Shown: positions 8,270-58,919 of the stretch, in pieces
Numbering within the stretch: position 1 is the first letter of the stretch
Layout of the letters: each line of letters starts with the position of its first letter
DNA from: Mytilus trossulus
Lineage: Eukaryota
Direction: 5' to 3'
DNA length: 64,000 bases
Assembly (NCBI RefSeq): GCF_036588685.1
Contig: NC_086379.1
Location: forward strand, 84,072,001-84,136,000
Program-made: the position numbers and the translations under genes
Notes under the pieces: model-generated
Seen by the model: only the letters and a program-made list of their open reading frames with translations
Database searches by the model: none
What the model was told of the DNA's origin: nothing

Positions 8270-9540
8270 ACATTTTCCCATATTTTGACTATTTTATTTA
8301 TTGTGTCTGTTTATGTAACGCATCAATGTAAATATAACGGAATTTGATGAGACTGTCATTAAAGTGAGAGGGTTAGCGCTATAGAACCAGGTTTAAAATT
8401 TTTTTTTTTTAAATTGTCTGTATGCACATTGAACATCAAATTTATGTGACGTATATAATTTTTCTAACGTCAGACACTCAAATCAATCCATGTGTTCTTA
8501 GACAGTAGATGTTATTGTGTCCTGTTAAATTGTTCCCTTTAAAAAGTTTTGGATTCTCATATATTCTATGTATAATTTTTGGACTAGTTTGAATCTCGGT
8601 CTATTTCTGTAATTTATTCTTACATACTTTTGATTTTTTAACCCTGTATGCGTACATTGCCTATGTAAATTTTAAAATTGTTTGTATGCACATTGAACGA
8701 CAAATTTATGTGACGTATATAATTTTTCTGACGTCGGACACTCAAGTAGATCCATGTGTTCGTGGATAGGTTTTTGTGTCCTGTTAAATTGTTCCTTTTA
8801 AAAGTTTTGGATTCTCATAAATTCTATGTATAACTTTTGGACTAGTTTGATTTCTGTAATTTATTCTTACATACTTTTGATTTTTTAACCCTGTCTGCGC
8901 TCATTGCCTATGTAAAATTTAAAATTGTTTATAATCCAGGTACTTTTGATAACTATTGTATGCACATTGAACGACAAACTTATGTGACGTATATAATTTT
9001 TCTGACGTCAGACACTCAAATCAATCCATGTGTTCGTAGATAGCAGATGTTGTTGTGTCCTGTTAAATTGTTATACGATGATGACTGATGTTCCCATATT
9101 TTGACTATTTTATTGATTGTGACTGTTTATTTAACGCATCATGTAAATGTAACGGAATTTGATGAGACTGTTATTAAAGTGAGAGGGTTAGCTCTATAGA
9201 ACCAGGTTTAATCCACCATTTTCTACATTTGAAAATGCCTGTACCAAGTCAGGAATATGACAGTTCTTGTCCATTCGTTTTTGATGCGTTTTGTTTTTTG
9301 ATTTTGCCATGTGATTATGGACTTTCCAAATTGATTTTCCTCTGAGTTCAGTATTTTTGTGATTTTACTTTTTAATCCACCATTTTCTACATTTGAAAAT
9401 GCCTGTACCAAGTCAGGTATATGACAGTTCTTGTCCATTCGTTTTTGATGCGTTTTGTTATTTGATTTTACCATGTGATTATGGACTTTCCGAATTGATT
9501 TTCCTCTAAGTTCAATATTTTTTGTGATTTTACCTTTTTC
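8270..9540. repeat. Abundant interspersed repeat with internal tandem subunits; other copies at 37432-38291, 39590-39865, 57385-57950
   Basis: Shared core gtgagagggttagcgctatagaaccaggtttaatccaccattttctacatttgaaaatgcctgtaccaagtcagg. Confidence 0.85.
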
Positions 9541-10315
9541 TATTACAAAACACATCAACCTTATTTCTTTCAATCAATAGTTGTCAAATATAATTGTCAA
9601 CACTAAACCTGTCCTTCTATTCTATCAAAGTAAATAGTTTTACTTTACTTATACAATAATATATTTTGTTAAATGATCTACCTAACTCTGCACAAAGAGA
9701 GATAACTCAAAAAATAAAATTATTCGTTTGACTTGACAAAGGACAATTAAACAAGGACAATAACTCTGTAAAAATAATCTAACCAAAATCAATATCTTCC
9801 AGCATGAAAAAATGTATGAGAAACTGATTTGTGATATAGATGGACTGACAACCAGAACATGTTGAAGTCCATTTCAGCTTAAGAGACTAATAACTAATAA
9901 AAAACTTTGATAGGCAAAAACAAATTACAAAAATACTGAACTTAGAGGAAAATCTAATCGGAAAGTCAATAATCACGTGGCAAAATCAAATAACAAAAAA
10001 CATTCATAGAGTAAATAATATATAAAAAATACACCATTTAAAACTAAAATACTGCAAAAACATGTGGTTCTGTTCAATTGGAAGCCTTTAAATCAGTAAT
10101 TGTCGCTTTTTAGTGTTTGTCATATCCTTTTTATAATTAATTTGTTATATATTGGCATTTGGTTTTCTCATTTCTCATTTTAATTTATACAACATTTTAA
10201 ATTGGTAGAAGCGTTTGTTATAGAAGAAATGTGCTGTCCATTTTGTATATAAATATATATTTTGTGTGGTCAGGTCAGTGCAATGACCTCTTTGATACTG
10301 ATTGAATAATAATAT

Positions 10316-10635
10316 TGTTGTATCTTTACCCTAAGCCCCGGGTTCTCCCTATTAGGGGTAGACAACTGATAACATTCTCCCTGCCAGGAGTAGACGATGG
10401 ACACCAATGGGCCTCTGGTTGGATACAGCGGATGTCAGAGCCTGCGCACGCCTGCAGCGCCTTCTTCACCTTATGGTCAACAATACGTTAGACGCAATAT
10501 AACGAAGACACAGTAACAACGCCCGAGTTATAGATAATTACATAATATTTAAGCCTAAGTACTTCTTATATGTATAAAGTCCAGGTCAGGTCCTTTCAAG
10601 GGAAATAGTCTTTCCCCAAGACGAACACCACATTA
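10316..10635 (+). repeat. 5' LTR (TGTTG...CATTA)
   Basis: Matches 20796-21115 with 2 mismatches (aacatt/accatt; cttctt/cctctt). Confidence 0.95.
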
Positions 10636-10636
10636 T

Positions 10637-10659
10637 TGGTAGTTGCGGGTGGTTCGAAC
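10637..10659 (+). promoter_or_regulatory. Primer binding site, resembling the complement of the initiator tRNA-Met 3' end
   Basis: TGGTAGTTGCGGGTGGTTCGAAC starts 1 nt after the LTR; imperfect match to the iMet-type PBS TGGTAGCAGAGGATGGTTTCGA. Confidence 0.7.
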
Positions 10660-11097
10660 ACACATGGTGTGACCTAGTTAGCCATTTTGGTCAGGGAATT
10701 TTGACTAGGTGCAATCAAGCGTGATTTGCAAAATAATTTTGGCTATTATGAGACTTTGCAAGTTGGATTAGGCTTAAAAGAAAAGCTTTAGAAGCGATAC
10801 CTTATTGAGCAAAGCGTTGTAAGATAAGTTATTCACTGTCTGTGAAAGTTTTCAAACTTTGTCCAAGTCATTGATTTTTTTCAGATTGAGTCTCGCGTGA
10901 TTTCGTGTTACCAGGTAACAGCGATACTTGAGATCAATACCGGAAGCGATTTCCGTGATTTGCTTACATATGCAATACACATCTTTGCTATTTGTAAACG
11001 GGATTTAAATCAATAAAGACTTGTTTATTATTTTGTTATTGTGTTGTCATTTATTTATAGTGAAAGTATCACGGAATATAGGGTAATATTCAGCACA

Positions 11098-13031
11098 ATG
11101 AGTGGGTTTAAAATTAAAATAAACTCCAGTCCGGAGTCTGTTCTCCTACATGTACCTGGCATTGGTACGGCTACTGCTCGTAGAATTATAGTAATGAGAA
11201 ATAATGGCATAACAATAACACCAGAAATATTGGCCCAAATACCATATATGAAAAATAAAATGTCACTTGTGTCCGATATGATTTATTTTTCTCCTTGTGA
11301 ATTCAATGACATGGACAATGTTGATGTCAGGTATCAAGGTCAGCCACATGAGTAACAAGACTATGAGACAGATACACATGTAAAATCACACGAGGGAGGG
11401 GCAGCAAATTTTGTTTCCACACCCTTCACCCTGGGTACTATTAGACGGGAAATTGCTCATTTGCAAGAATTTAACACCGATACACAGAGGTGGATAGACC
11501 AACACGGTTCCACACAGGCACCTGTCCAGGGGGGTGTAATTTATCAAAAACCTAATTTACATCAACCGGTTTTTTCTGACTCGGAGATTGCCATGGATAC
11601 AGTGTGGAATTCGCAGGTTGATCGCCCGTCAATGAGATCCATGCCCTCATGCATTGAGGAAAATGAATATCCAACCCAAGAGATGGATCGTTGCAGAATT
11701 TTTGACGATAATCTGTCCTGTAGTGAGGAATCGTTACTTCCCAGCCAGAAGAAATTGACCCAGCATACGGACCACATTATGTAGAATATGAACCGTCAGA
11801 TAAGCCAGATTTGCCAAGTCTAGATCGGTCTATGAGTATTCAGCATGATAGCACCACTATGATAGAGGTTCAGCTGAATCAGCAACCAAGGTTAGTGGGT
11901 GAACATTGTACAGAGTACGAGTCGTCAACTGCTATGAAAGAGCAACATTTCGAGAACACCCACCTCAACGACAGGTTCCAACAAAGTCAATCAACAATTG
12001 AACAGGACTTTAACAGACAGACTAGGGAACCAATCAATCAGCGCAGTAGGTTGTTAGAAAATTCTGTCAACTATATTCAACCGCCACAACCAACAGTTCA
12101 ACTGCCTGTTGAACATACAGTCAACTTCAACCAACGTCAACAAGCTGTTCAACTACCTGTTGAACGTATCAACCAGCGTCAACAAGCTGCAACTCCCTGT
12201 TGAACATAATGACAACTACCCGCGATCAAATACTAGAGCCATTCATCTACTTGGTGGTCACACAGTCACCAACACACAACCAATTCAACAATCAATTCAA
12301 CAATAAACCCGGCATACCATTAGCAACGTACCACATTAATCACACGGCACATCCGTGCTTAACGGACAATTGCCTACTCAACAAGGTTTCAACAGGTCAC
12401 CTCCGACTGTTGCCAACCAACCAATCAACCACAGGGCTACAGGTCAACAACCACCTCAACCCAATTTCAACAGGTCGAACCCTTTACCTGCACTTAGGTC
12501 TACTCCACCCGTCAGGGAAAGGGAACCTTATCAACAACTTCCACCGACCGCTAACAGGGCCAATCAACCACCCTGTCCCAGTTCAACAGGTCAACTACAG
12601 TCAACTAGACAACAAAACTATACCTTTCCAGTCGGTACAGCCGGACAACAAAACAGAGTGATTGATAATCAACAAGATCAACCACCGATCAACCATCCTG
12701 TTAATATATCACATATCAACAGCCATGTTCCACCGACACAACAATTTAACAGAACAGGTCTATACCAACCTAACACCAACCAGTCAGGTTTTCAACAACC
12801 ACTCAATAACACAATGGGTCAGCAGGGGCAAACGCCTCAGGCCATACATAACCAACAGGAATTTTACAGGCAACAACCGGTGCAACATCTCCAAAATGTT
12901 ACTGCACCTATACATCAGACTCAACAGCCATATGGAAATATACCATATTAGCAAGGGAGGCCCTATCCTTCAACAACACCAATCTTGTACAAGGAACGGC
13001 TCAATCAGGGTATTATGACACAGCTCCACAC
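11098..13031 (+). pseudogene. gag: Disrupted 5' part of gag: N-terminal HhH motif followed by a long Q/P/N-rich low-complexity region
   Basis: ATG at 11098 (MSGFKIKINSSPESVLLHVPGIGTATARRII). The fragments at 11041, 11461, 11811, 12109/12355 and 13032 join into one frame across in-frame stops (11353, 12304, 12949) and frameshifts (~11740, ~12190, ~12965). Confidence 0.8.
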
Positions 13032-16000
13032 TTGCCAGTGTACCCACAACAACAGTTGTACAATAACAGTCCACACACTCAGTTTCAGGATCAACGCAGT
13101 ATGTCTAGTATTACGAGCTGCTCAAATAGTGATTCAGATTCATCTAGTTCTACATCAGGGGTAGTGTATCGTCGGAGTCGTCATAAGAGTAGAAGCCACA
13201 AAACACACTCTGGACTCAGTATATCAAGCAGACATGTTTTACCAGTGGAGGAGGAGGCTAGTGAACACTCATCGCCACACCGAAAAAATTCAGGCAAGAA
13301 GCATGACAAAAAGAGGTCAGACAGACATGGTCAGTCGGAAACGGATGGTCACCATTCCTCAAGCAACCGTCATAGAGCGAAGCCAGCTCCAATGCAACAG
13401 GACAAGAAATTTTTCTTTTCGGTGCCCAAGAACCTTAAGTACACAGGGAAAGGCAACTGGAAGGCATTTTACACAAAGTTCACCGGGTACGCTGAGGCTG
13501 CTGGTTGGACGGACAAACAAAAACGAGAACAGCTTTGTTGGTGCTTGGAGGACAAAGCTAGTGATTTTTATACAGTGCTACTTGAATCCAACAAAGACAT
13601 TGCTTTTAGTGCAGTAGTGACTAAAATGGTGAAACGCTTCGGTTTTCAAGAACCACAAGAAACTTCACAGATACAGTTTCAGACTATAACCCAAAAGAAA
13701 GAGGAATCCCTGGAGGATTGGGCGGATCGTGTATTATCCCTGGCGACACAATCCTTCAAAGACCTCTCTGAAGAGTACATGACAAAACAAACAGTAATGA
13801 AATTTTGTCAAGGTTGCAACGACCCAGAGGCTGGACAACACGCATGTGGGTTTAAACCAGTATCGGTTGAAAATGCAATTGATATAATTAAGTGGTATCA
13901 GCATTCAAGAAAGGCTGTGCAAGCCCATATTGCTCAAGGAAAAACACATGAAGTCAAACAGGCGTCAGCTCCAACACCAACAGCACAAGTTAGTGACACA
14001 CCATCAGTGCACGATGTAGGCTCATCTAAACCAAACATAGACACACGAGTATCTCAAATGGAGCAACAGCTTCGTCAACAACGAGAAGAGCAACAACAGA
14101 GCATGCAACAGATGCAAAGCCTACTGTCCTCAATGGCTACACTTACAGAGGAAATGCGACATTCAAACAGATCTAGTGGTACTTCGCCCAGTCGGGACTA
14201 TAGATCAGATAATACCTCACGTGGACGTGGTCAAGGTAGAAGAGATGGTTATAATAATCGTGCTGGTAACCGCAGGTCACAAACCCCAGACGGGGCATGT
14301 TTTTATTGTCATGAAATAGGACATTTCAAAAGAGATTGCCCAAAGTTAAATAACTCACCTGGCAGCAAACCGCCAACTCAGAATAAGCAAACAGAACGCA
14401 AATCAGTTACAATGAATGTGCCAGAGGACAAAGCTACAGAGGGACCATCTAATGGGTTTACTGTGGTAGGAACAATTGGGACTGATCAACTGTTGAGAGT
14501 AAAGGTACAAATCCAGGACAAGCTAGTAACTGCATTGATTGATACGGGCTCAGAGGTTAACATAATGCAGGACAAAGTTTTTGATTCTCTGAAAGAAAAA
14601 CCTTATGTCATTAAAAAGACACTTATGCATGGAGCAGGCCGAGAAATGCAGATGACCTGCAGAATTACTAATCCTACTCTGTTTAGTATACAGGACCTAC
14701 TTTTCAATCACAACTTATATATCGCTCCAATTGACTGTGAGATGCTACTGGGCCATGACTTCTTAGCTAGTAATAATGTTATTCTCAACATTGGTCAAGG
14801 ATACATGTCCATCAACGACAAGACAGTTAAGCTAGTCTTAGGAGGAGAGATACCATCTGCTCAACCCTCAGTCAGCAGAATTACAATACCAAGCTCGGAA
14901 GTAGTCCCACCTAACTCAGTAATGCGAATGAATTGTACAGTACCAGTACAGGATAATGATTTTGTGATAGAACCAAACTCGAAGACTACACTCTTGATTC
15001 CAAGGTCCGTTTGTGCTAAAGGACAAAGTCCTGTTGTTTGTTTTATGAATGTGACGGACAACCCTGTCCGACTCCATGGTGGAACAGAAGTAGCTGAGGC
15101 ACATGCTGTGACCATAATTGAATCTATGGATGACCCTCAAGAGCTAAGTGTTGGTACTTGTTCAACCAGTAAACAGGGTACCAGTCAAAAGGGTACACCA
15201 CCTAAACAAGAGGACCTCCCAGATCATCTCCAAGAACTCTTTACTACATCCAGTCAGGATTTGACATCAGATCAGAAATCAAAACTGAGATCTTTGCTTT
15301 ACACGTACAGTGATGTTTTTGCAAGGACAGAGTTTGACCTTGGTAATTTTAGTCATGTAGAACATGAAATTGATACTGGCGATGCCAGGCCTATTCAGCT
15401 CCGTATGCGGAGAACACCAGCTTGTTTTGTTCAAGAGGAGGAGGCGCACCTCCAGAAAATGTTAGATGCCGGAGTTATACAACCTTCAACATCAGAATGG
15501 GCTTCAGCACCAGTGCTTATAAGGAAGAAAGATGGCGGGGTACGCTGGTGCATTGATTTCCGGAGGCTAAACTCAGTCACATCACGTGATTTATTTCTTC
15601 TGCCCCTGATAGACGAATGTCTGGATACTTTGGCTGGACACATATGGTATTCCAAACTGGACGCTAATAGCGCATATTGGCAAATAAAGATCAAGCCAGA
15701 GGACCGTAAGAAAACTGCATTTGTCACCAAATATGGATTGTTTGAGTGCGTCAAGATGGCATTTGGACTTTGCAACGCACCAGGTACCTATGCCAGAGTA
15801 ATGAACCTGGTACTCAGAGGTTTAACGTGGAAAACTGTTTTGGCTTTCCTTGATGATATATTGGTTCTACGACCATCTTTTGATGAACATCTCACTAACC
15901 TACAGAATGTATTTGCCAGATTTAGAGAGTATGGACTTAGACTAAAGCCTAAGAATTGTGCTTTATTCAGAACCAATGTGGAACTTTTAGGCAGGAGTGT

Positions 16001-18672
16001 CAGTAACCAGGGCCTCCAAATAGGTCAGCAACATTTGCAACCAGTTAGTGGTTGGGTTGTGCCTACTAGCACAATGGAAGTTGAACAATTCCTGGGATTT
16101 GTGAACTACTACCGTTCATTTATCAAGGACTATGCCAAAATATCTGCTCCACTATATGAAGTGACAGGAAAAAAATTGTTTTCATGGAACCATGAACGTC
16201 AACTTGCATTTCAGACGTTAAAAGACAACTTGTTATCTGCACCAGTACTTACTTTGCATAACAACAAGGATTATTTCACCCTGGATACAGACGCCTCCCA
16301 AAATGCAATAGGCGCAGAACTCATTCAGGTGCAAGATGGAGAGGAACGGACCATAGTATATGGTAGCTTTGTACTATGGGCCGAACAAAAACGTTATTGC
16401 ACAACTAGGAAGGAGTTGTTGGCAGTAATTAGATTTACTAGACAGTTCAGACACTACCTTCTGGGAAGACAATTCACTGTGAGGACAGACCATAGTAGTT
16501 TGACATGGCTTGTCAATTTCAAAGAGCCCCAGGGGCAATTAGTTAGATGGTTGGAAGAGCTCAGCCAATATGACCTGGTCATAAAGCATAGGCCTGGTAA
16601 ACAACACATTGCTGCAGATGTCTTGTCTCGTCTCCCGGATAGGTTAAAAGAATGTCCACATTATACTACAGACACCATACCGGCAAGTTTACCTTGCAAG
16701 GGCTGTAATTACTGCCAGCGAGCACATCAAAGTTGGGCACAGATCTTATGTGATGTAGATGAAGCAGTACCACTGGCTAGAAAAAGAAAGCAAAAGCCAA
16801 GATTACTTAAAAGAGTAGCAACAGCAATGATGATGTTATTTGAAACTCCAGAACAGGTTTCAACCTTGGAACAACCTGCAGTACCAGTTGAATCTGCAGT
16901 TACTGACGACTGTTGTTACACTAGCAGCTTAAACTTAATTGAGCCACTAGCAAGCCAGTCATCTGAGGAATGTGATTTACCACCATTCAGTACAAGTATA
17001 GAATTGATTTTTACTCCATCAACGGTAAGAATTGTAATGGATGACTCTTCTGATTGTGTCGTAGCAGCAATCGCACAAGAAGAGGGCATAACCATCTCAG
17101 GTTTCAGTGAAGAGGATATAAAAACAGGCCAAGAGAGTGATCTAGACTTGATGTTTATCCTCCCGTATTTAAAAGATGGCTGTGAACCACTATCCAATGA
17201 TTTGTTCCTGGCACCACCAGCAGCCAAGAGTCACTGGATAAATAAAGAAAGATTTTTCTTAGACAATGGTATTTTAAAGAGTCAACCCAAAACAGAGGGA
17301 GCCAATACAAGACTTGTTGTACTCGCTTCTTTAAGACAAACAGTAATGGAGCTCTGTCATGAACTGCCTAGTGCAGGACATCAAGGTGTATCAAGGACCA
17401 TGTCCAAGATAAAGGACAAATATCACTGGTATAACATGACCAAAGACATTAACTTGTTTGTACTTAGTTGTGATACTTGCAACAAGAACAAGAAAGCGAG
17501 CAGACATAGTAAATGTCCTCTGACCAAGTACCATGCTGGGTACCCTATGGAAAGAGTCCACATAGATTTTATGGGCCCTTTGCCAAAGACGAAACAAAAC
17601 AATGAACATATTTTAATGATGACAGACCAATTCACCAAGTGGACGGAATGTATACCACTACCGTCACAAACGGCGGAAGTAACTGCTCAGGCTGCCATTA
17701 ATGAGTTTTTTTTACAAGATTTGGCTATCCATTCCAGCTATTCTCAGATCAGGGACGTAACTTTGAGAGCGCACTCCTTAAAGCAGTATGTGATTTGCTG
17801 CAAATTCATAAGGCGAGAACGACCCCATATCGTCCTCAGTCAAATGGACAGGTTGAGAGACAGAACCGCAGTCTCATGGATGCAGTCAGATGCTTTGTTG
17901 ATTCACAACAAGAAAGCTGGGATCAACATATTGCTCAACTAGGGGGAGCCATGAGATCTAGTGTCAACAGGAGTACAGGGTATATACCAAACAAGCTAAT
18001 GCTGGGCAGGGGAACCAATCAGCCAGCAGACCTTATGTTCGGCAGTCAGAGCGAAAGGAAGTATGAGGGTGCTGATAGCTATATAATAGACCTTGAAAAA
18101 GCTATTAAAAGTGCGCATACCATTGCTCGGGATAAGCTCAAGACTTCCCAGGAGAGAATGAAGAGAGACTATGACCTAAGGGTCTTAGAAAAATCGTACC
18201 AGCCGGGGGATCTTGTGTATGTTTTAGACACTGCCCAAATTAAGGGTAAATGTAAAAAATTAGGGTCACCATGGAAAGGGCAAGGCATTGTAATTAGTAA
18301 GGTTACCGGTACGTGTACAAGGTGAAACTCCAACGGGTGATTTTTAACACTAATCATGACCGACTCAAGCCATGTGGGGATAGGAAGATTCCTGCTTGGT
18401 TGGAGACGTGTAGGGACAAATTTAAACAAGGTATTGATGTCTTGGCAGGCAATAAGACCAAGCCTACAACCCCTCAGTACTGTGTGTGTCGGGGCCCAGA
18501 CACGGGTGAGACAATGGTCCAATGTGATTATTGTAGGGAATGGTTCCATTTAACCTGCATAGGTATGTCAATCCAAGAGGCCAATGAGATAGATCTCTAC
18601 ATTTGCCCAAACTGCCAACTTGTCCGTCCTACTCCACCCTCAAAAGATAAAAAAGGGGGAGAAAATGAGTAG
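13032..18672 (+). pseudogene. pol: Gag-Pol polyprotein: capsid-like region, CCHC knuckle, aspartic protease, RT, RNase H, integrase, PHD finger; two frameshifts in the integrase region
   Basis: CFYCHEIGHFKRDC (14298-14339); LIDTGS (~14541); RWCIDFRRLN and FLDD (~15846); DTDAS and RTDH; integrase H-x6-H...CDTC, HIDFMGP, then SDQGRNFES and YRPQSNGQVER after a frameshift in a T8 run (17706-17713); second frameshift at ~18310; stop TAG at 18670-18672. Confidence 0.95.
18478..18615 (+). other. PHD finger (C4HC3) at the integrase C-terminus
   Basis: YCVCRGPDTGETMVQCDYCREWFHLTCIGMSIQEANEIDLYICPNC has all 8 zinc ligands at canonical spacing. Confidence 0.93.
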
Positions 18673-18772
18673 GTAACCATATTGTGTAAATAGTCAGTTT
18701 AATTATTGTGTATTAGATACGTAAATTGTCAGTTTAACTAATGTTTGTTTATTTTTTTTCATATTTTTCAGA

Positions 18773-19693
18773 ATGTCAGACTCAGAATCATTCAGGTCTT
18801 GCTCCAGCGAGGGCAGTGAAGATGAGGAAAGGTCTTGGAGGCCAAGTAGTTGTAACTCCCAGCCGGGAGTGGGCATTCAGCCATTTGATACCACAATCTT
18901 GGATGAAGCCAACCACAGGAGAAGGGTCAGGAGGGAAGTACCTGGCCAGGAAGGACCTGTAGAGGATCCCACAGTACTGCCGGAGGTACCAGCAATACCC
19001 CAAGTAAGTGAGTTAAAGGAACAGGAGGAATCTGTACAGGAACCTGGAGAGTCACTTCCTACTCCAAAGGAGCCTGCAGCCGCTCAGGAGGAAGCAGTCA
19101 AGGAAGTCGACCTTATGGCTTTCAAGAAGGTCATTCCAGAGGCTTGGAAGGGGAAGAAGCACCTGGTATGGACAGGACCATACAGTGGGTTCAAGGAAAG
19201 AACCTGGAGACTGAGTGACAGGGATGTCGCGTGCCCTGTCCCAGACTGTCCGGTGATAACCAGGCACTTGAGAGAACATGCCCTAGCTGACCACTTGTCA
19301 GGGATGTTCGGCAGTAAGTTCTCCCAACAGATCTTGCAGGACAGAGAGTTCCAGCATTTCAGAGGCCAGATGGTCATTCTCATTGCCAGATGGTTGACGG
19401 GGAGAGAGGATGTTACAGCCTCTGAGTTTGTATCATGGCTCCAGCGACGAGCCGGCATCCCAGACGGAGTTAGGATTCAGGGAATTGATATGCCCCCGCT
19501 CCGGGCTGTCTGTTCTGCTATGAAATGGCCACAGCGCAGGGTGTATACGATCCACCCATTTAATAGTCCAGTGGTTGTGCTGTATTGGAGGGTGATGTTG
19601 TCCCTTATTAGACATCTCAGCATGGCAAACAGAATAACCATTGCCATGGACGAATACACCGGGAACAACGGTCCCACTTATGACCTAGTCTAA
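18773..19693 (+). CDS. Retrotransposon ORF3, unknown soluble protein (acidic N-terminus, CPVPDC...HLREHALADH zinc-finger-like motif)
   Basis: 306-aa GC-rich ORF inside the element, directly after a branch point, polypyrimidine tract and CAG acceptor (18738-18771). No evident signal peptide or transmembrane helix. Confidence 0.75.
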   Translation: MSDSESFRSCSSEGSEDEERSWRPSSCNSQPGVGIQPFDTTILDEANHRRRVRREVPGQEGPVEDPTVLPEVPAIPQVSELKEQEESVQEPGESLPTPKEPAAAQEEAVKEVDLMAFKKVIPEAWKGKKHLVWTGPYSGFKERTWRLSDRDVACPVPDCPVITRHLREHALADHLSGMFGSKFSQQILQDREFQHFRGQMVILIARWLTGREDVTASEFVSWLQRRAGIPDGVRIQGIDMPPLRAVCSAMKWPQRRVYTIHPFNSPVVVLYWRVMLSLIRHLSMANRITIAMDEYTGNNGPTYDLV

Positions 19694-19696
19694 CAG

Positions 19697-20113
19697 ATGA
19701 ACTGGAAGTTCATGGCAGCTAAAGTTGTGGCAGAGCCCGCCGTGGCTAAGTCCACAACCAGAGTGCCAGCGACAGAGACAAGCTGTAGCTCTAGCTCTGT
19801 GGATGTCCCACAAGTGACACAGCCATTGCAGTCAGTGCCCCAGAGGGAGGAGGAAGAGATGGTCACTCCACCAGTGGAGGAGCCAGTAGCCGTGGCAACC
19901 AAGCCAGAGGAATCATTGGTGGTTCTAGTGTACCACAACACTAGGAAGTTGGTTGGGGTAACATCTGTTGCTAGTGCTGTTGCTCAGGCTAGGGAGGTGT
20001 TTGACCTGGAAGACCAGGAGGTCGTGCTCACCTACCTGGGAGCGGAGCTGACCAGCTCAGTAAGGATGGAGTTGTTGCCAGCCATGGCAGAACTGACAGT
20101 AACACGCAAATGA
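19697..20113 (+). CDS. Retrotransposon ORF4 or C-terminal continuation of ORF3; last ~65 aa resemble a ubiquitin-like (CIDE-N/PB1-type) beta-grasp domain
   Basis: Same frame as ORF3, separated only by TAA-CAG; motif RKLVGVTSVASAVAQAREVFDL...VVLTYLGAEL...LLPAMAELTV. Confidence 0.6.
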   Translation: MNWKFMAAKVVAEPAVAKSTTRVPATETSCSSSSVDVPQVTQPLQSVPQREEEEMVTPPVEEPVAVATKPEESLVVLVYHNTRKLVGVTSVASAVAQAREVFDLEDQEVVLTYLGAELTSSVRMELLPAMAELTVTRK

Positions 20114-20782: not shown

Positions 20783-20795
20783 AGGAAGGAGGGGG
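20783..20795 (+). promoter_or_regulatory. Polypurine tract
   Basis: AGGAAGGAGGGGG abuts the 3' LTR. Confidence 0.9.
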
Positions 20796-21115
20796 TGTTG
20801 TATCTTTACCCTAAGCCCCGGGTTCTCCCTATTAGGGGTAGACAACTGATACCATTCTCCCTGCCAGGAGTAGACGATGGACACCAATGGGCCTCTGGTT
20901 GGATACAGCGGATGTCAGAGCCTGCGCACGCCTGCAGCGCCCTCTTCACCTTATGGTCAACAATACGTTAGACGCAATATAACGAAGACACAGTAACAAC
21001 GCCCGAGTTATAGATAATTACATAATATTTAAGCCTAAGTACTTCTTATATGTATAAAGTCCAGGTCAGGTCCTTTCAAGGGAAATAGTCTTTCCCCAAG
21101 ACGAACACCACATTA
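20796..21115 (+). repeat. 3' LTR
   Basis: Direct repeat of 10316-10635. Confidence 0.95.
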
Positions 21116-21892
21116 ATATGTATACTGCTCTCAGCTCCCTACATGTAATTTCTATTGTGTATGTAATTCAGGTTTATCATCTAATTGTAACAAGACATGT
21201 TGTATCAACAGGTTAATTTTATAAACAAAAATTTACTCACCATAACTTTGAAATAAAACCTTTTTGGAAATCAAAAATCATTAAATAATACATTTTTTTA
21301 TGATTGAACTACTGTAACACATCTCTTTAACAAATCGCACGTGGTAAATGATCACATGACCAGAATTTAAATGTAATTGAAATTAACATAACAAAAGACT
21401 TGATGTACGGTAACTATGATACTTCTTAATAAATACAGGTAGCTTTTGTGAGAAATAAATAAAGATACAAAACATACTTTATTTAAAAAAATATATGGGG
21501 AGAGGTAAAGATATATAGATCGATAATGATTGCAGGTACATGTACATTTGTACAAGGACAGATAATATTTTTAAAGGTTGATGTTAATAATTTATAGTGG
21601 GGTGTTTTTTTTTCTCATTTGATTTTTCCCCGACAAATGAGACTGTAACAATTGGGGCCCCCTTAGTTGCTCCCCTGGGCAACTGAGGGTTGATGTAACA
21701 GGCGATTGTTAATAAAATATGTTTTATATAAAAAAAAAAAAAGAAGAAATGTGCATGTACTATTTGGGGGAAAATAAAAACAAAATAAGGTAAGTACATG
21801 TATATACAAATCGCAAGAAATATTCTATTTGCATACCAAATTTTGATAAACAGTAGTTGAAAGTGAAATAACAAGACAAAAAAAACTTAAAA

Positions 21893-22130
21893 AAAAATCA
21901 AAATGAATAGTCCATTAAACCATGGCAAAATTAAAAATCAAAATGAATAGTCCATTAAACCATGGCAAAATTAAAAATCAAAATGAATAGTCCATTAAAC
22001 CATGGCAAAATGAATAGTCCATTAAACCATGGCAAAATGAATAGTCCATTAAACCATGGCAAAATGAATAGTCCATTAAACCATGGCAAAATGAATAGTC
22101 CATTAAACCATGGCAAAATTAAAAATCAAA
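21893..22130. repeat. Short tandem array of 27/39-bp units (AAAATGAATAGTCCATTAAACCATGGC)
   Basis: 7 copies of the core. Confidence 0.9.
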
Positions 22131-23267
22131 AGCATCAAACGAACTATAAAAAACGATTTGTTTGTAGAAGCTTTCTCACTGGAAACACAATGGTGTTACT
22201 AATCTGGTGACATACATTTTCTTATTCTAAGTTTATGTGTCAATTATTACTCATGCCAAGTATTTCTTTATTTAAAACAAGAATAAGTTAACGGACACGC
22301 AACGGATATGAACGGAAGTCTAACGGATAAGAACGGACGTCCAACGGACATGAACGGATTGAAAAAAAGTTATCCGTTAGACGTCCGTTCGAGCTATCCG
22401 GTAAGGTGTGACCGAGGCTTAACGCAAACTCCAAAAATAAATAGATGAATGATGGATGTATGAAATACCGAGATACGTCTCATAGCTATGCAAATTCAAA
22501 CTCGGTATAACAGTGATTTTCGGGAATAGGTCACGTTGTGTACTTAACAGACATACAACATATATGTTCAACCACAAGGTAAGACATGGTAAACATTAGT
22601 TTAGACACAAACACATCGTATAAATCAACTAATTCGTGATCGTCAGAATTACGAGATAATTTATACTCTGAAACATTCGTGCCACGGATGTAATGTTTCA
22701 CGCACCTCTGTCGTTTACAAAGAGACATTTCTATATCGTATTGCTATCTTTTATATCTAAACAGGTCATTTTGATAAAAATTTACATTAGCACTTGTCTT
22801 CACAAATCATAACGTCAAACTGTTCAATTTGTTTCCGTGTGACCTTTTTTTGTTTTTAAGATTTGAAAAATGCGAGTCCTTTAAAAAGAGGAAAATCATC
22901 CCAGCAAGAAAGAATCAAATTAAGTGTTTAGTTCATTTTTAATTGTTTAAAACATGAACTTTTAACCAAGGTACTAAGTTTTTATTTTAATTAGGCTAAC
23001 CAAATGGAAGGTTTTCGAGAATCAATGGTAATCATGGGCATGTTCTTTTAAAGTTTTTTTCATATCTGAATTCCGATCAGGTCTTTATTTGCGTTAACGA
23101 TACTTGGCGTAATCTGAACGAAACAGAGCATTATGAGTTGCACGAATGTCTTTCACAAAAATTTATTCTTGTGGATCTGGTTTCAAATTTATTCTTTTGC
23201 TAGTTAGTCTTAGAGTAATATCGTCCTGAACATGCATGAAATAATTCCACTGGACGTTAAACAAACA

Positions 23268-24281
23268 TCAATCAATCAACCTTAAGGTAGTGTAACAATC
23301 AATCAACCTTAAGGTAGTGTAACAATCAATCGACCTTAAGGTAGTGTAACAATCAATCGACCTTAAGGTAGTGTAACAATCAATCGACCTTAAGGTAGTG
23401 TAACAATCAATCGACCTTAAGGTAGTGTAACAATCAATCGACCTTAAGGTAGTGTAACAATCAATTGACCTTAAGGTAGTGTAACAATCAATCGACCTTA
23501 AGGTAGTGTAACAATCAATTGACCTTAAGGTAGTGTAACAATCAATCAACCTTAAGGTAGTGTAACAATCAATCGACCTTAAGGTAGTGTAACAATCAAT
23601 CGACCTTAAGGTAGTGTAACAATCAATCGACCTTAAGGTAGTGTAACAATCAATCGACCTTAAGGTAGTGTAACAATCAATCGACCTTAAGGTAGTGTAA
23701 CAATCAATCAACCTTAAGGTAGTGTAACAATCAATCGACCTTAAGGTAGTGTAACAATCAATCAACCTGAAGGTAGTGTAACAATCAATCAACCTTAAGG
23801 TAGTGTAACAATCAATCGACCTTAAGGTAGTGTAACAATCAATCAACCTTAAGGTAGACCTTAAGGTAGTGTAACAATCAATCAACCTGAAGGTAGTGTA
23901 ACAATCAATCGACCTTAAGGTAGTGTAACAATCAATCAACCTTAAGGTAGTGTAACAATCAATCAACCTTAAGGTAGTGTAACAATCACTCAACCTTAAG
24001 GTAGTGTAACAATCAATCGACCTTAAGGTAGTGTAACAATCAATCGACCTTAAGGTAGTGTAACAATCAATCGACCTTAAGGTAGTGTAACAATCAATCG
24101 ACCTTAAGGTAGTGTAACAATCAATCGACCTTAAGGTAGTGTAACAATCAATCGACCTTAAGGTAGTGTAACAATCAATCGACCTTAAGGTAGTGTAACA
24201 ATCAATCGACCTTAAGGTAGTGTAACAATCAATCGACCTTAAGGTAGTGTAACAATCAATCGACCTTAAGGTAGTGTAACA
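23268..24281. repeat. 27-bp minisatellite, ~37 copies (AATCAATCGACCTTAAGGTAGTGTAAC)
   Basis: Direct inspection; nearly homogeneous units. Confidence 0.97.
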
Positions 24282-37431: not shown

Positions 37432-38291
37432 CTGTGTCCTGTTAAATTGTTCCCTTTAAAAAGTTTTGGATTCTCATATATTCTATGTATAATTTTTGGA
37501 CTAGTTTGAATCTCGGTCTATTTCTGTAATTTATTCTTACATACTTTTGATTTTTTAACCCTGTATGCGTACATTGCCTATGTAAATTTTAAAATTGTTT
37601 GTATGCACATTGAACGACAAATTTATGTGACGTATATAATTTTTCTGACGTCGGACACTCAAGTAGATCCATGTGTTCGTGGATAGGTTTTTGTGTCCTG
37701 TTAAATTGTTCCTTTTAAAAGTTTTGGATTCTTATAAATTCTATGTATAACTTTTGGACTAGTTCGATTTCTGTAATTTATTCTTACATACTTTTGATTT
37801 TTTAACCCTGTCTGCGCTCATTGCCTATGTAAAATTTAAAATTGTTTATAATCCAGGTACTTTTGATAACTATTGTATGCACATTGAACGACAAATTTAT
37901 GTGACGTATATATTTTTTCTGACGTCAGACACTCAAATCAATCCATGTGTTCGTAGAAAGTAGATGTTGTTGTGTCCTGTTAAATTGTTATACGATGATG
38001 ACTGATGTTCCCATATTTTGACTATTTTATTGATTGTGACTGTTTATTTAACGCATCATGTAAATGTAACGGAATTTGATGAGACTGTTATTAAAGTGAG
38101 AGGGTTAGCGCTATAGAACCAGGTTTAATCCACCATTTTCTACATTTGAAAATGCCTGTACCAAGTCAGGAATATGACAGTTCTTGTCCATTCGTTTTTG
38201 ATGCGTTTTGTTTTTTGATTTTGCCATGTGATTATGGACTTTCCAAATTGATTTTCCTCTGAGTTCAGTATTTTTGTGATTTTACTTTTTA
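37432..38291. repeat. Near-identical copy of ~8515-9372
   Basis: Collinear, with very few differences. Confidence 0.9.
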
Positions 38292-56750: not shown

Positions 56751-58919
56751 AATATATCTGTTTAAATACACCGAATAAATTTTAATCTAAACTCTCTGCA
56801 TTAGGAAAAGGAAATATTTATTTGAGGACAAGAACTGTCATAAAATATACCGCGGGAACTATACAGATATGTATACGCGTTCGCGCTGTCTTTATGTAAC
56901 GTCATATCCGAACAAATGGCGGGAAGATGCTCGCGAGGGTAAAAAATGAATATCCAAAATTGCAAATACCATGGTATTTGACGCATATTCACCGGCAGTG
57001 GTAGATTCGTTTGAAATGAGGAAAAAATGTTAGATTATGCGAAAATACACTGACTATCAGCCAATCAAAAGCTGGCATTCTTATATAAGGTGTAATTATA
57101 TCATAGAACCGTGGGAATAATACCTGTACTAATACGCGTTAACTCTCTTTTTTTCATATAACGTCATATCCGAAAAATAAATCCGTAAAAAAAGAATATC
57201 CAAAATGGCAAATATCATGCGACTTTTTGTCTTTCTTGTGTTTTTATTACGTGACTCTGTAATTTAAAAGATCCCGTAAGTATTATATTGGTCTATTATA
57301 TATCATGATATTTCTATTATGAATTACTATATACGTTGAACCACAAACGTCAAAATCATTCAATCGCGTAGTGGTATTAACTATTTTTGGGTTCTCATAA
57401 ATTCTACCTATAACTTTTGGACTAGTTTTAATATCGGTCTATTTCTGTAATTTATTCTTACATACTTTTGACTTTTTAACCCTGTATGCTTACATTGCCT
57501 ATGTAAATTTTAAAACTGTTTGTATGCACATTGAACGACAAATTTATGTGACGTATAATATTTTCTGACGTCAGACTCTAAAATCAATTAATGTGTTCGT
57601 AGATAGAAGATGTTTTTGTGTTCGGTTAAATTGTCCCCTTTTAAAATTGTTATACGATGATGACTGATGTACCCATATTTTGACTATTTTATTAATTGTG
57701 ACTGTTTATTTAACGCATCATGTAAATATAACGGAATTTGATGAGACTGTTATTAAAGTGAGAGGGTTAGCGCTATAGAACCAGGTTTAATCCACCATTT
57801 TCTACATTTGAAAATGCCTGTTCCAAGTCAAGAATATGACAGTTCTTGTCCATTCGTTTTTGATGCGTTTTGTTATTTGATTTTGCCATGTATTATGGAC
57901 TTTCCTAATTGATTTTCCTCTGAGTTCAGTATTTTTGTGATTTTACTTTTTAAGGCAATTTCAACTGCAGTGGTGAAAATAGGCAAATTCGTTTGAAATG
58001 AGGAAAAAATATTAGAATATGCGAAATATACACTGGTTATCATCCAATCTAAATCTGGCTTTCTTTTATAAAGTGTTATGAAAGTACATAGCCACGTCAT
58101 ATTTGTTAACTTCTTAACCGGTATGTTTGGGAAATACCCCTTGTACATGTAAGCATGATATGTTTGTATAACATCATGTTTTCATGCAAAATTACATTGG
58201 CATTTAATTATCTTAATTAACTTGTTTGATTTAACAAATTTAAGTTGCAATGTTTTATGGTAGACTTTGAACAAATAGACGTCGTTTTTTTTTTCATCAA
58301 ATGAAAAATATAGTCGCTAGAAGTTTTTTTTTTATTCCAAACAAAACAGTCACGTCCTTTTTCATACATTGGGAAAGGTGGATATAAGTTTTGGGTTATA
58401 AATTCACTGAAGATGATATAATTAAAATGATGGACTTTTTAATTAATCGACACTATTTGTTTGTAGGATTGATATTTCAACGAACAGTCGATATTTCAAT
58501 GAGTACTTATTGTATACCCCTTATAGATCTGGTCGATTTGTTTTTGTACTGGTATGCAGCATAATGCATTCAGAAACTTCTTAAAGAAAAAAAGAAAGTG
58601 CAACTTGCTAATATTTTAAAGTTTTACTTAAGGTATATTGATAATGTACTTTCACTGAATAACCATTATTTCAGTTATAATAATTATAATTATATATTAA
58701 TACCTTTATTTAAAGAGAGTAACTTATTTGGAATAAACCAATTCTCTCTACATACACTGTTAACAATATGAATAAAACAGAATTATACATAATTAATCTA
58801 CTATTACACACACGTAAACAATAGACGTATATAAAGAAATATAACAACAACATTTGAAAAACCATATGATATACATTGTGGCTTAAATTAAACACTTTAA
58901 AAAATATAATGACTTGTAA

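Follow-up and report, generated by a model that had tools for sequence, protein, structure and literature searches.

The window analysed here, a 64,000-nucleotide stretch of the Mytilus trossulus genome (contig NC_086379.1, positions 84,072,001 to 84,136,000, forward strand), carries a 10.8-kb Ty3/gypsy retrotransposon, recognized by its long terminal repeats (LTRs), target duplication, primer-binding-site position, polypurine tract and the order protease, reverse transcriptase (RT), RNase H, integrase. Its third open reading frame (ORF3), which occupies the position of an envelope (env) gene, is composite: a core that we call module X is followed by a short tail resembling the CIDE-N domains of the DFF40/DFF45 apoptotic DNase system, whereas in relatives the same core is followed by a TatD DNase. 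This anatomy, taken apart from any view of what the tail does, is very probably correct. Animal Gypsy elements with an ORF3 other than env are known, and the lineage described here amounts to a natural experiment on what such an ORF3 does. Why should one and the same module be joined either to a DNase or to a putative docking domain of the type found in the apoptotic DNase system of the host, and never to both in 61 regions? The parts of ORF3 are as follows.

18773..20113, plus strand: ORF3, one gene of 446 codons, with a premature TAA (19691-19693) only in the window copy
18773..19153, plus strand: N-terminus, variable, acidic and of low complexity, unalignable between families
19154..19690, plus strand: module X, a C2H2-type finger (C154, C159, H169, H174; 19232-19294) and a helical domain
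19904..20110, plus strand: CIDE-N-like beta-grasp domain, 69 residues

An earlier note on this DNA had divided the region into a GC-rich ORF of 306 amino acids and, beyond an in-frame TAA, a further ORF4 of 138. The first frame and its composition (52% GC in ORF3 and 55% in ORF4, vs 42% for pol and 34% for the whole window), the TAA and the 138 residues counted from the methionine (139 codons) are all present; what does not stand is the division into two ORFs. The stop position is a sense codon in 12/12 distinct sister copies with a matched motif (14 were examined, two of them unmatched), sister copy L051 has a single ORF of 446 amino acids, and the database protein P0001, also of 446 amino acids, is 98% identical. 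Judged from these sequences, the internal stop is private to the window copy, which is decayed. A search of the same genome with the ORF3 core gave 78 matches, and all 18 named proteins among 20 close database homologs come from Mytilus. That ORF3 is not an envelope protein, as had been proposed, is supported by best 19-residue hydropathies of 1.37 and 1.02, which indicate no transmembrane helix; the signal peptide, furin site and transmembrane anchor of env-bearing errantiviruses were not found in it, nor was an env Pfam match. The WPQ and TIHPFNSPVVVLYWRV block is present, and so is the basic patch HRRRVRR, although the latter is restricted to the variable N-terminus of the window family and is not conserved. 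The zinc ligands, previously read as CPVPDC-x6-H-x3-H, have to be reassigned to C154, C159, H169 and H174 (C-x4-C-x9-H-x4-H), which are invariant in 13/13 aligned rows across families; H165, the histidine formerly counted first, is not conserved and lies at a spacing of x5, not x6. The helical domain closes with a P-x-x-S-P...(H/Y)WR block.

ORF3 is conserved and under purifying selection, with a core dN/dS of 0.04-0.15 in four close-copy pairs (Fisher P 9e-4 to 4e-10) and a tail dN/dS of 0.07-0.17 in two tested pairs; other close pairs give higher values on few changes, namely 0.25 and 0.44 for the core and about 1, on 4-5 changes, for the tail. Two ORF3 alleles share 64% core identity, with synonymous sites saturated, and sit on backbones (LTR plus gag-pol) of 95-100% DNA identity. 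From such divergent alleles on near-identical backbones we infer that the ORF3 cassette has been swapped by recombination.

The suggestion that relatives might append an enzyme domain is borne out. In Gypsy families less closely related to the window element but present in the same genome, module X, which is the core of the window element's ORF3 and common to the Gypsy-TatD type of ORF3, is followed by a TatD DNase (Pfam 120-127 bits). HxH and the other metal-site motifs occur, seemingly intact, in the putatively active TatD domains, in 13/13 checked. HxH is given as a mark of Group II TatD nucleases of the TATDN2/3 type in the accessible part of PMC10085689, a likeness that the relatives' ORF3 share and that the window element, having no TatD, lacks. 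The genome contains 140 TatD matches. Of 61 regions selected because they match module X or TatD, 36 contain TatD and 22 the short tail, three have neither and none has the two together; TatD was found neither in the window element nor in any of the 22 tail-bearing regions. The two further modules reported earlier, an HhH motif that opens Gag and a PHD finger at the end of Pol, are both present. An RT tree of 37 rows unites the 11 with a tail in a single clade (100/99), nested in a PHD clade of 22 rows; TatD is present in the remaining lineages of the PHD clade and in 15/15 rows outside it. With the tail clade nested among TatD lineages, TatD is likely to be the ancestral state, replaced once by the tail. 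The midpoint root of this tree, and the six elements with split RT that were left out of it, weigh against reading the direction of change too firmly. TatD families without PHD have a related two-finger N-terminus by eye, with a profile match in two.

Module X has a confidently predicted structure, for which no Foldseek match was found, and no name, and its profile recruits 529 protein clusters at E 0.001. Among the best 150 of these, 81 have at least 100 residues after X, of which 57 have TatD, seven the tail by profile and five the tail by eye; many bivalve database proteins labelled ‘TatD’ or ‘uncharacterized’ are retrotransposon cargo. Named members come from Mytilus and Ostrea, apart from one protein labelled as belonging to a bacterial metagenome-assembled genome, which is likely to be host contamination. 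Three proteins (P0035 from Ostrea, P0045 and P0046) have two module X matches each, followed in two of them by TatD. One non-autonomous family with its own LTRs has a single frame encoding HhH, Gag, protease, X and tail, and neither RT nor integrase; its loci (L035/L036, L033/L034 and L018-L029) give at least 12 matches, with a frame of about 1,500 codons, and its gag is under purifying selection relative to autonomous relatives. In a TatD family (L043:7340-9823, L047, L089, L091 and L098), integrase-PHD runs in frame into X, and an acceptor-like site directly before the ATG is kept. Module X also occurs in an open exon of 2,373 codons (L031:3659-10000 and L032, at G000:C11:65.21-65.22 Mb; L102:2454-9641), near which no gag, pol, TatD or LTR was found at L031/L032 or L102. 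This exon shares 83-94% identity with proteins from two further Mytilus species, whose gene models splice it to PDCD6/ALG-2-like EF-hand exons, and it is possibly a domesticated module X in a host gene.

The tail is predicted to adopt a beta-grasp alpha/beta roll, a fold also common to ubiquitin. Could it then be a generic ubiquitin-like domain, a decoy or degradation tag unrelated to CIDE? The best Foldseek matches, ISG15 and ubiquitin at a TM of about 0.8, would favour such an origin; sequence profiles, however, give 18-37 bits between tail and CIDE vs at most 1 bit for ubiquitin-like controls, and the tail shows neither sequence similarity to ubiquitin nor a C-terminal di-glycine, ORF3 ending in TVTRK. 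We consider this origin very improbable. The tail of one relative, P0107, passes the Pfam PF02017 gathering score (four others stay below the cut-off), the window tail being connected to CIDE-N by profile, and in the alignment the basic RK at the second strand is kept. CIDE domains pair through basic and acidic faces and allow DFF45 to keep DFF40 inactive, and CIDE filaments are required for DNA laddering, according to the accessible parts of PMC8891305 and PMC8647176. The tail is like the CIDE-N domains of DFF40/CAD, DFF45/ICAD and DREP1-4 treated there in its beta-grasp fold, profile-level similarity and basic RK second strand; it differs in being C-terminal, intronless and transposon-borne, in having no DFF40 nuclease or DFF45 inhibitor domain, and in its acidic face, which is eroded in the window family.

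Taken together, the nuclease partner of module X, its fusion to Gag-protease and into the Pol frame, and the CIDE-like tail point to nucleic-acid handling with the particle or complementary DNA (cDNA) and to docking of the CIDE type. Our preferred proposal, in which we place somewhat less than even confidence, is that ORF3 may be an adaptor associated with the particle or cDNA, its tail serving to dock on CIDE proteins of the host, for example the DFF40/DFF45 system. Since one family has X within its Gag-protease frame and another has it in frame with Pol, X would be directed to nucleic acid of the element itself, to its particle or to its integration complex; the ancestral TatD would have processed nucleic acid at the site so targeted, and once the swap had taken place the tail would either borrow or block a CIDE-regulated nuclease of the host in place of the element's own enzyme. 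A bolder version, which we hold only as a tentative possibility, is that a retrotransposon clade exchanged its own DNase for a captured CIDE domain in order to hijack or jam the host apoptotic DNase (DFF40/DFF45), as a mimic of the CAD/ICAD switch, ORF3 alleles being traded as cassettes in conflict with the expanded CIDE family of the host, whose genome has a DFF40 gene and 21 CIDE-N matches. In either version, the function of ORF3 becomes addressable through a domain of 69 residues.

Several observations weigh against docking. The window tail itself has no Pfam match and scores 5 bits against the DFF40-CIDE profile, and a narrower alignment of eight sequences gives 0.8% against DFF40; the Foldseek top 50 consists of ubiquitin-, ISG15- and SUMO-type chains, with no CIDE, and in VIA the CIDE rows are level with ubiquitin to within 1 Z. 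The acidic EDG-x-x-V-D-D face, as aligned, is eroded in the window family and kept in P0036/P0040. The strongest argument of all is that families with 91% identity in RT share about 20% identity in their tails, since such fast divergence, set against a conserved DFF40, fits one conserved host partner poorly. Fast divergence between families would instead fit two co-evolving faces of one protein, and thus a close rival to host docking, namely that the tail is a self-assembly module, a head-to-tail polymer that has no CIDE partner in the host and concentrates X on the RNA, cDNA or particle of the element. CIDE domains do form charge-driven filaments (PMC8647176, in the part available), and X and tail are together under selection within the Gag-protease frame of the non-autonomous family. 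Yet the window family is without most of the acidic face that head-to-tail chains need, and an exchange of strongly divergent ORF3 alleles on a shared backbone suggests host conflict more than a structural role. Polymer formation is in our view somewhat less probable than host docking.

Quite another role had been the first choice of the earlier note, that of a separately expressed nuclear transactivator or anti-silencing factor. Separate expression, from a spliced message of its own (see below), is supported; the role gives way to the particle- and cDNA-related one suggested by the history of the module. A diffusible factor binding the LTR through its zinc finger, with the tail as a generic interaction domain, would be consistent with the subgenomic mRNA, acidic N-terminus, C2H2 finger and allele swapping, with selection on X in the absence of any nuclease, and with the weak profile matches of X to C2H2 fingers in the PDB (E 0.24-6.4). 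In this clade, however, there is a single finger and no conserved basic patch; among the best 150 clusters, TatD follows X in 57 of the 81 representatives that have a long C-terminus; and a diffusible factor could be supplied to a non-autonomous element by others, yet such an element retains X in its Gag frame. Such a factor is therefore an unlikely reading of ORF3.

How is ORF3 expressed? The element within which this question arises is laid out as follows.

10312-10315 and 21116-21119: 4-bp target duplication ATAT, flanking the element
10316..10635, plus strand: 5' LTR, 320 bp, two mismatches to the 3' LTR
10510..10539, plus strand: end of the leader exon and splice-donor site (10533/10534) inside the 5' LTR, placed by contig loose ends and six sister copies
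10637..10655, plus strand: primer-binding-site position, starting with TGG, which the ORF3 splice would skip
11098..18672, plus strand: gag-pol (HhH, Gag, CCHC, protease, RT, RNase H, integrase, PHD)
18481..18615, plus strand: PHD finger at the end of Pol (Pfam PF00628, E 1e-11)
18670-18672, plus strand: pol stop TAG
18738..18771, plus strand: branch point, pyrimidine tract and CAG acceptor, with the exon from 18772
20783..20795, plus strand: polypurine tract
20796..21115, plus strand: 3' LTR, two mismatches to the 5' LTR

In the window copy gag-pol is interrupted by stops and frameshifts, and in a sister copy it is one open frame of about 2,500 codons. The acceptor described earlier is there in every detail: 100 nt separate the pol stop from the ATG at 18773, and within them lie the branch point CTAAT (18738-18742), a T tract and CAG (18769-18771), followed by one base. 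An acceptor stands shortly 5' of the ATG in all 15 families inspected, in eight of them in the form AG-N-ATG, a spacing that places A at -3 of the start codon. Its use is indicated by contigs of two runs, X2 and X3, that start exactly at the acceptor AG (18770), with loose ends of 22 and 25 letters that match the LTR sequence just upstream of 10533; the junction was seen in two of four contig runs. The donor is consequently not the one proposed near 10915, the joined site being 10533|10534 in the 5' LTR. A canonical donor occupies this site in six sister copies and neither LTR of the window copy, and in all five other families with delimited LTRs a donor-like site is likewise present, at 22-89 nt from the end of the LTR. 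The joined LTR-ORF3 form was not found as DNA in genome G000, where a 16-mer gave 10 matches (the two inspected were both unrelated) and none at 26 LTR-motif places. The ORF3 mRNA would thus run from the LTR donor to the acceptor, skipping the primer site and gag-pol. Against this stand the nature of X2 and X3, which come from two studies of two other organisms and are guessed to be RNA, the absence of an acceptor joint from four raw-read RNA runs (900 reads placed, low depth), and the 9 and 23 reads that cross the tract unspliced in two of the raw-read runs, although unspliced reads are also expected from the genomic RNA of the element. With its donor and open frame both lost, the window copy is predicted not to make the full ORF3 protein. 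In the 5' leader (window 10870-10920), a second acceptor-like site (10885) and a donor-like site (10914) are kept in four sister copies, and no joint at either was seen in the contig runs.

Might the 104-nt spacer instead be a short intron whose excision joins the integrase-PHD end of Pol to ORF3 in a single reading frame? The window family and three related ones have, overlapping the pol stop, a donor-like GT that agrees in phase with the acceptor, and in one TatD family the Pol frame continues into X. But the joint is absent in eight runs, no more than roughly half of the families have a G before the pol stop, the AG-N-ATG form is accounted for by the A at -3, and two of the candidate introns measure just 41-49 nt, all of which makes a Pol-ORF3 fusion very unlikely.

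Expression by splicing from the LTR donor invites comparison with known systems. In errantiviruses and retroviruses, env, as the 3' ORF, is expressed from a subgenomic mRNA spliced from a 5' donor. ORF3 shares this mode of expression, but lacks a signal peptide, transmembrane helix and fusion architecture, and its donor, unlike that of the env mRNA, lies inside the LTR, upstream of the primer site. Closer in kind are the Juno and Vesta LTR retrotransposons of bdelloid rotifers, whose ORF3 encodes a DEDDy exonuclease or a GDSL esterase; as far as the accessible text goes, they resemble the window element in that the env position holds cargo other than env, a nuclease included, with family-specific gain and loss, and in an ORF3 described as expressed from spliced messages, and they differ in their enzyme families, that text mentioning no TatD, module X or CIDE-like domain (PMC5408684). 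Non-env ORF3 cargo is thus already known; for the CIDE swap no published description was found. Likewise, no description of TatD or CIDE within retrotransposons was found in literature listings or in the accessible parts of the bivalve transposable-element surveys PMC6238403 and PMC10294476, Repbase being outside the scope of the search, and none of an ORF3 or PHD in the part seen of the first of these, which names the mollusc Gypsy clades C-clade and MolGy.

Some minor observations concern the element and its surroundings. The LTRs of the window element end in TG...TA, not TG...CA, as do those of related tail-bearing families, and in the TatD families checked the LTR ends in CA. Two 27-bp tandem arrays lie 3' of the element (window 21872-22154 and 23144-24281), the second of which yields a long spurious open frame, and another dispersed repeat is present in three copies (window 8326-9522, 37433-38275 and 57354-57937), two of them nearly identical.
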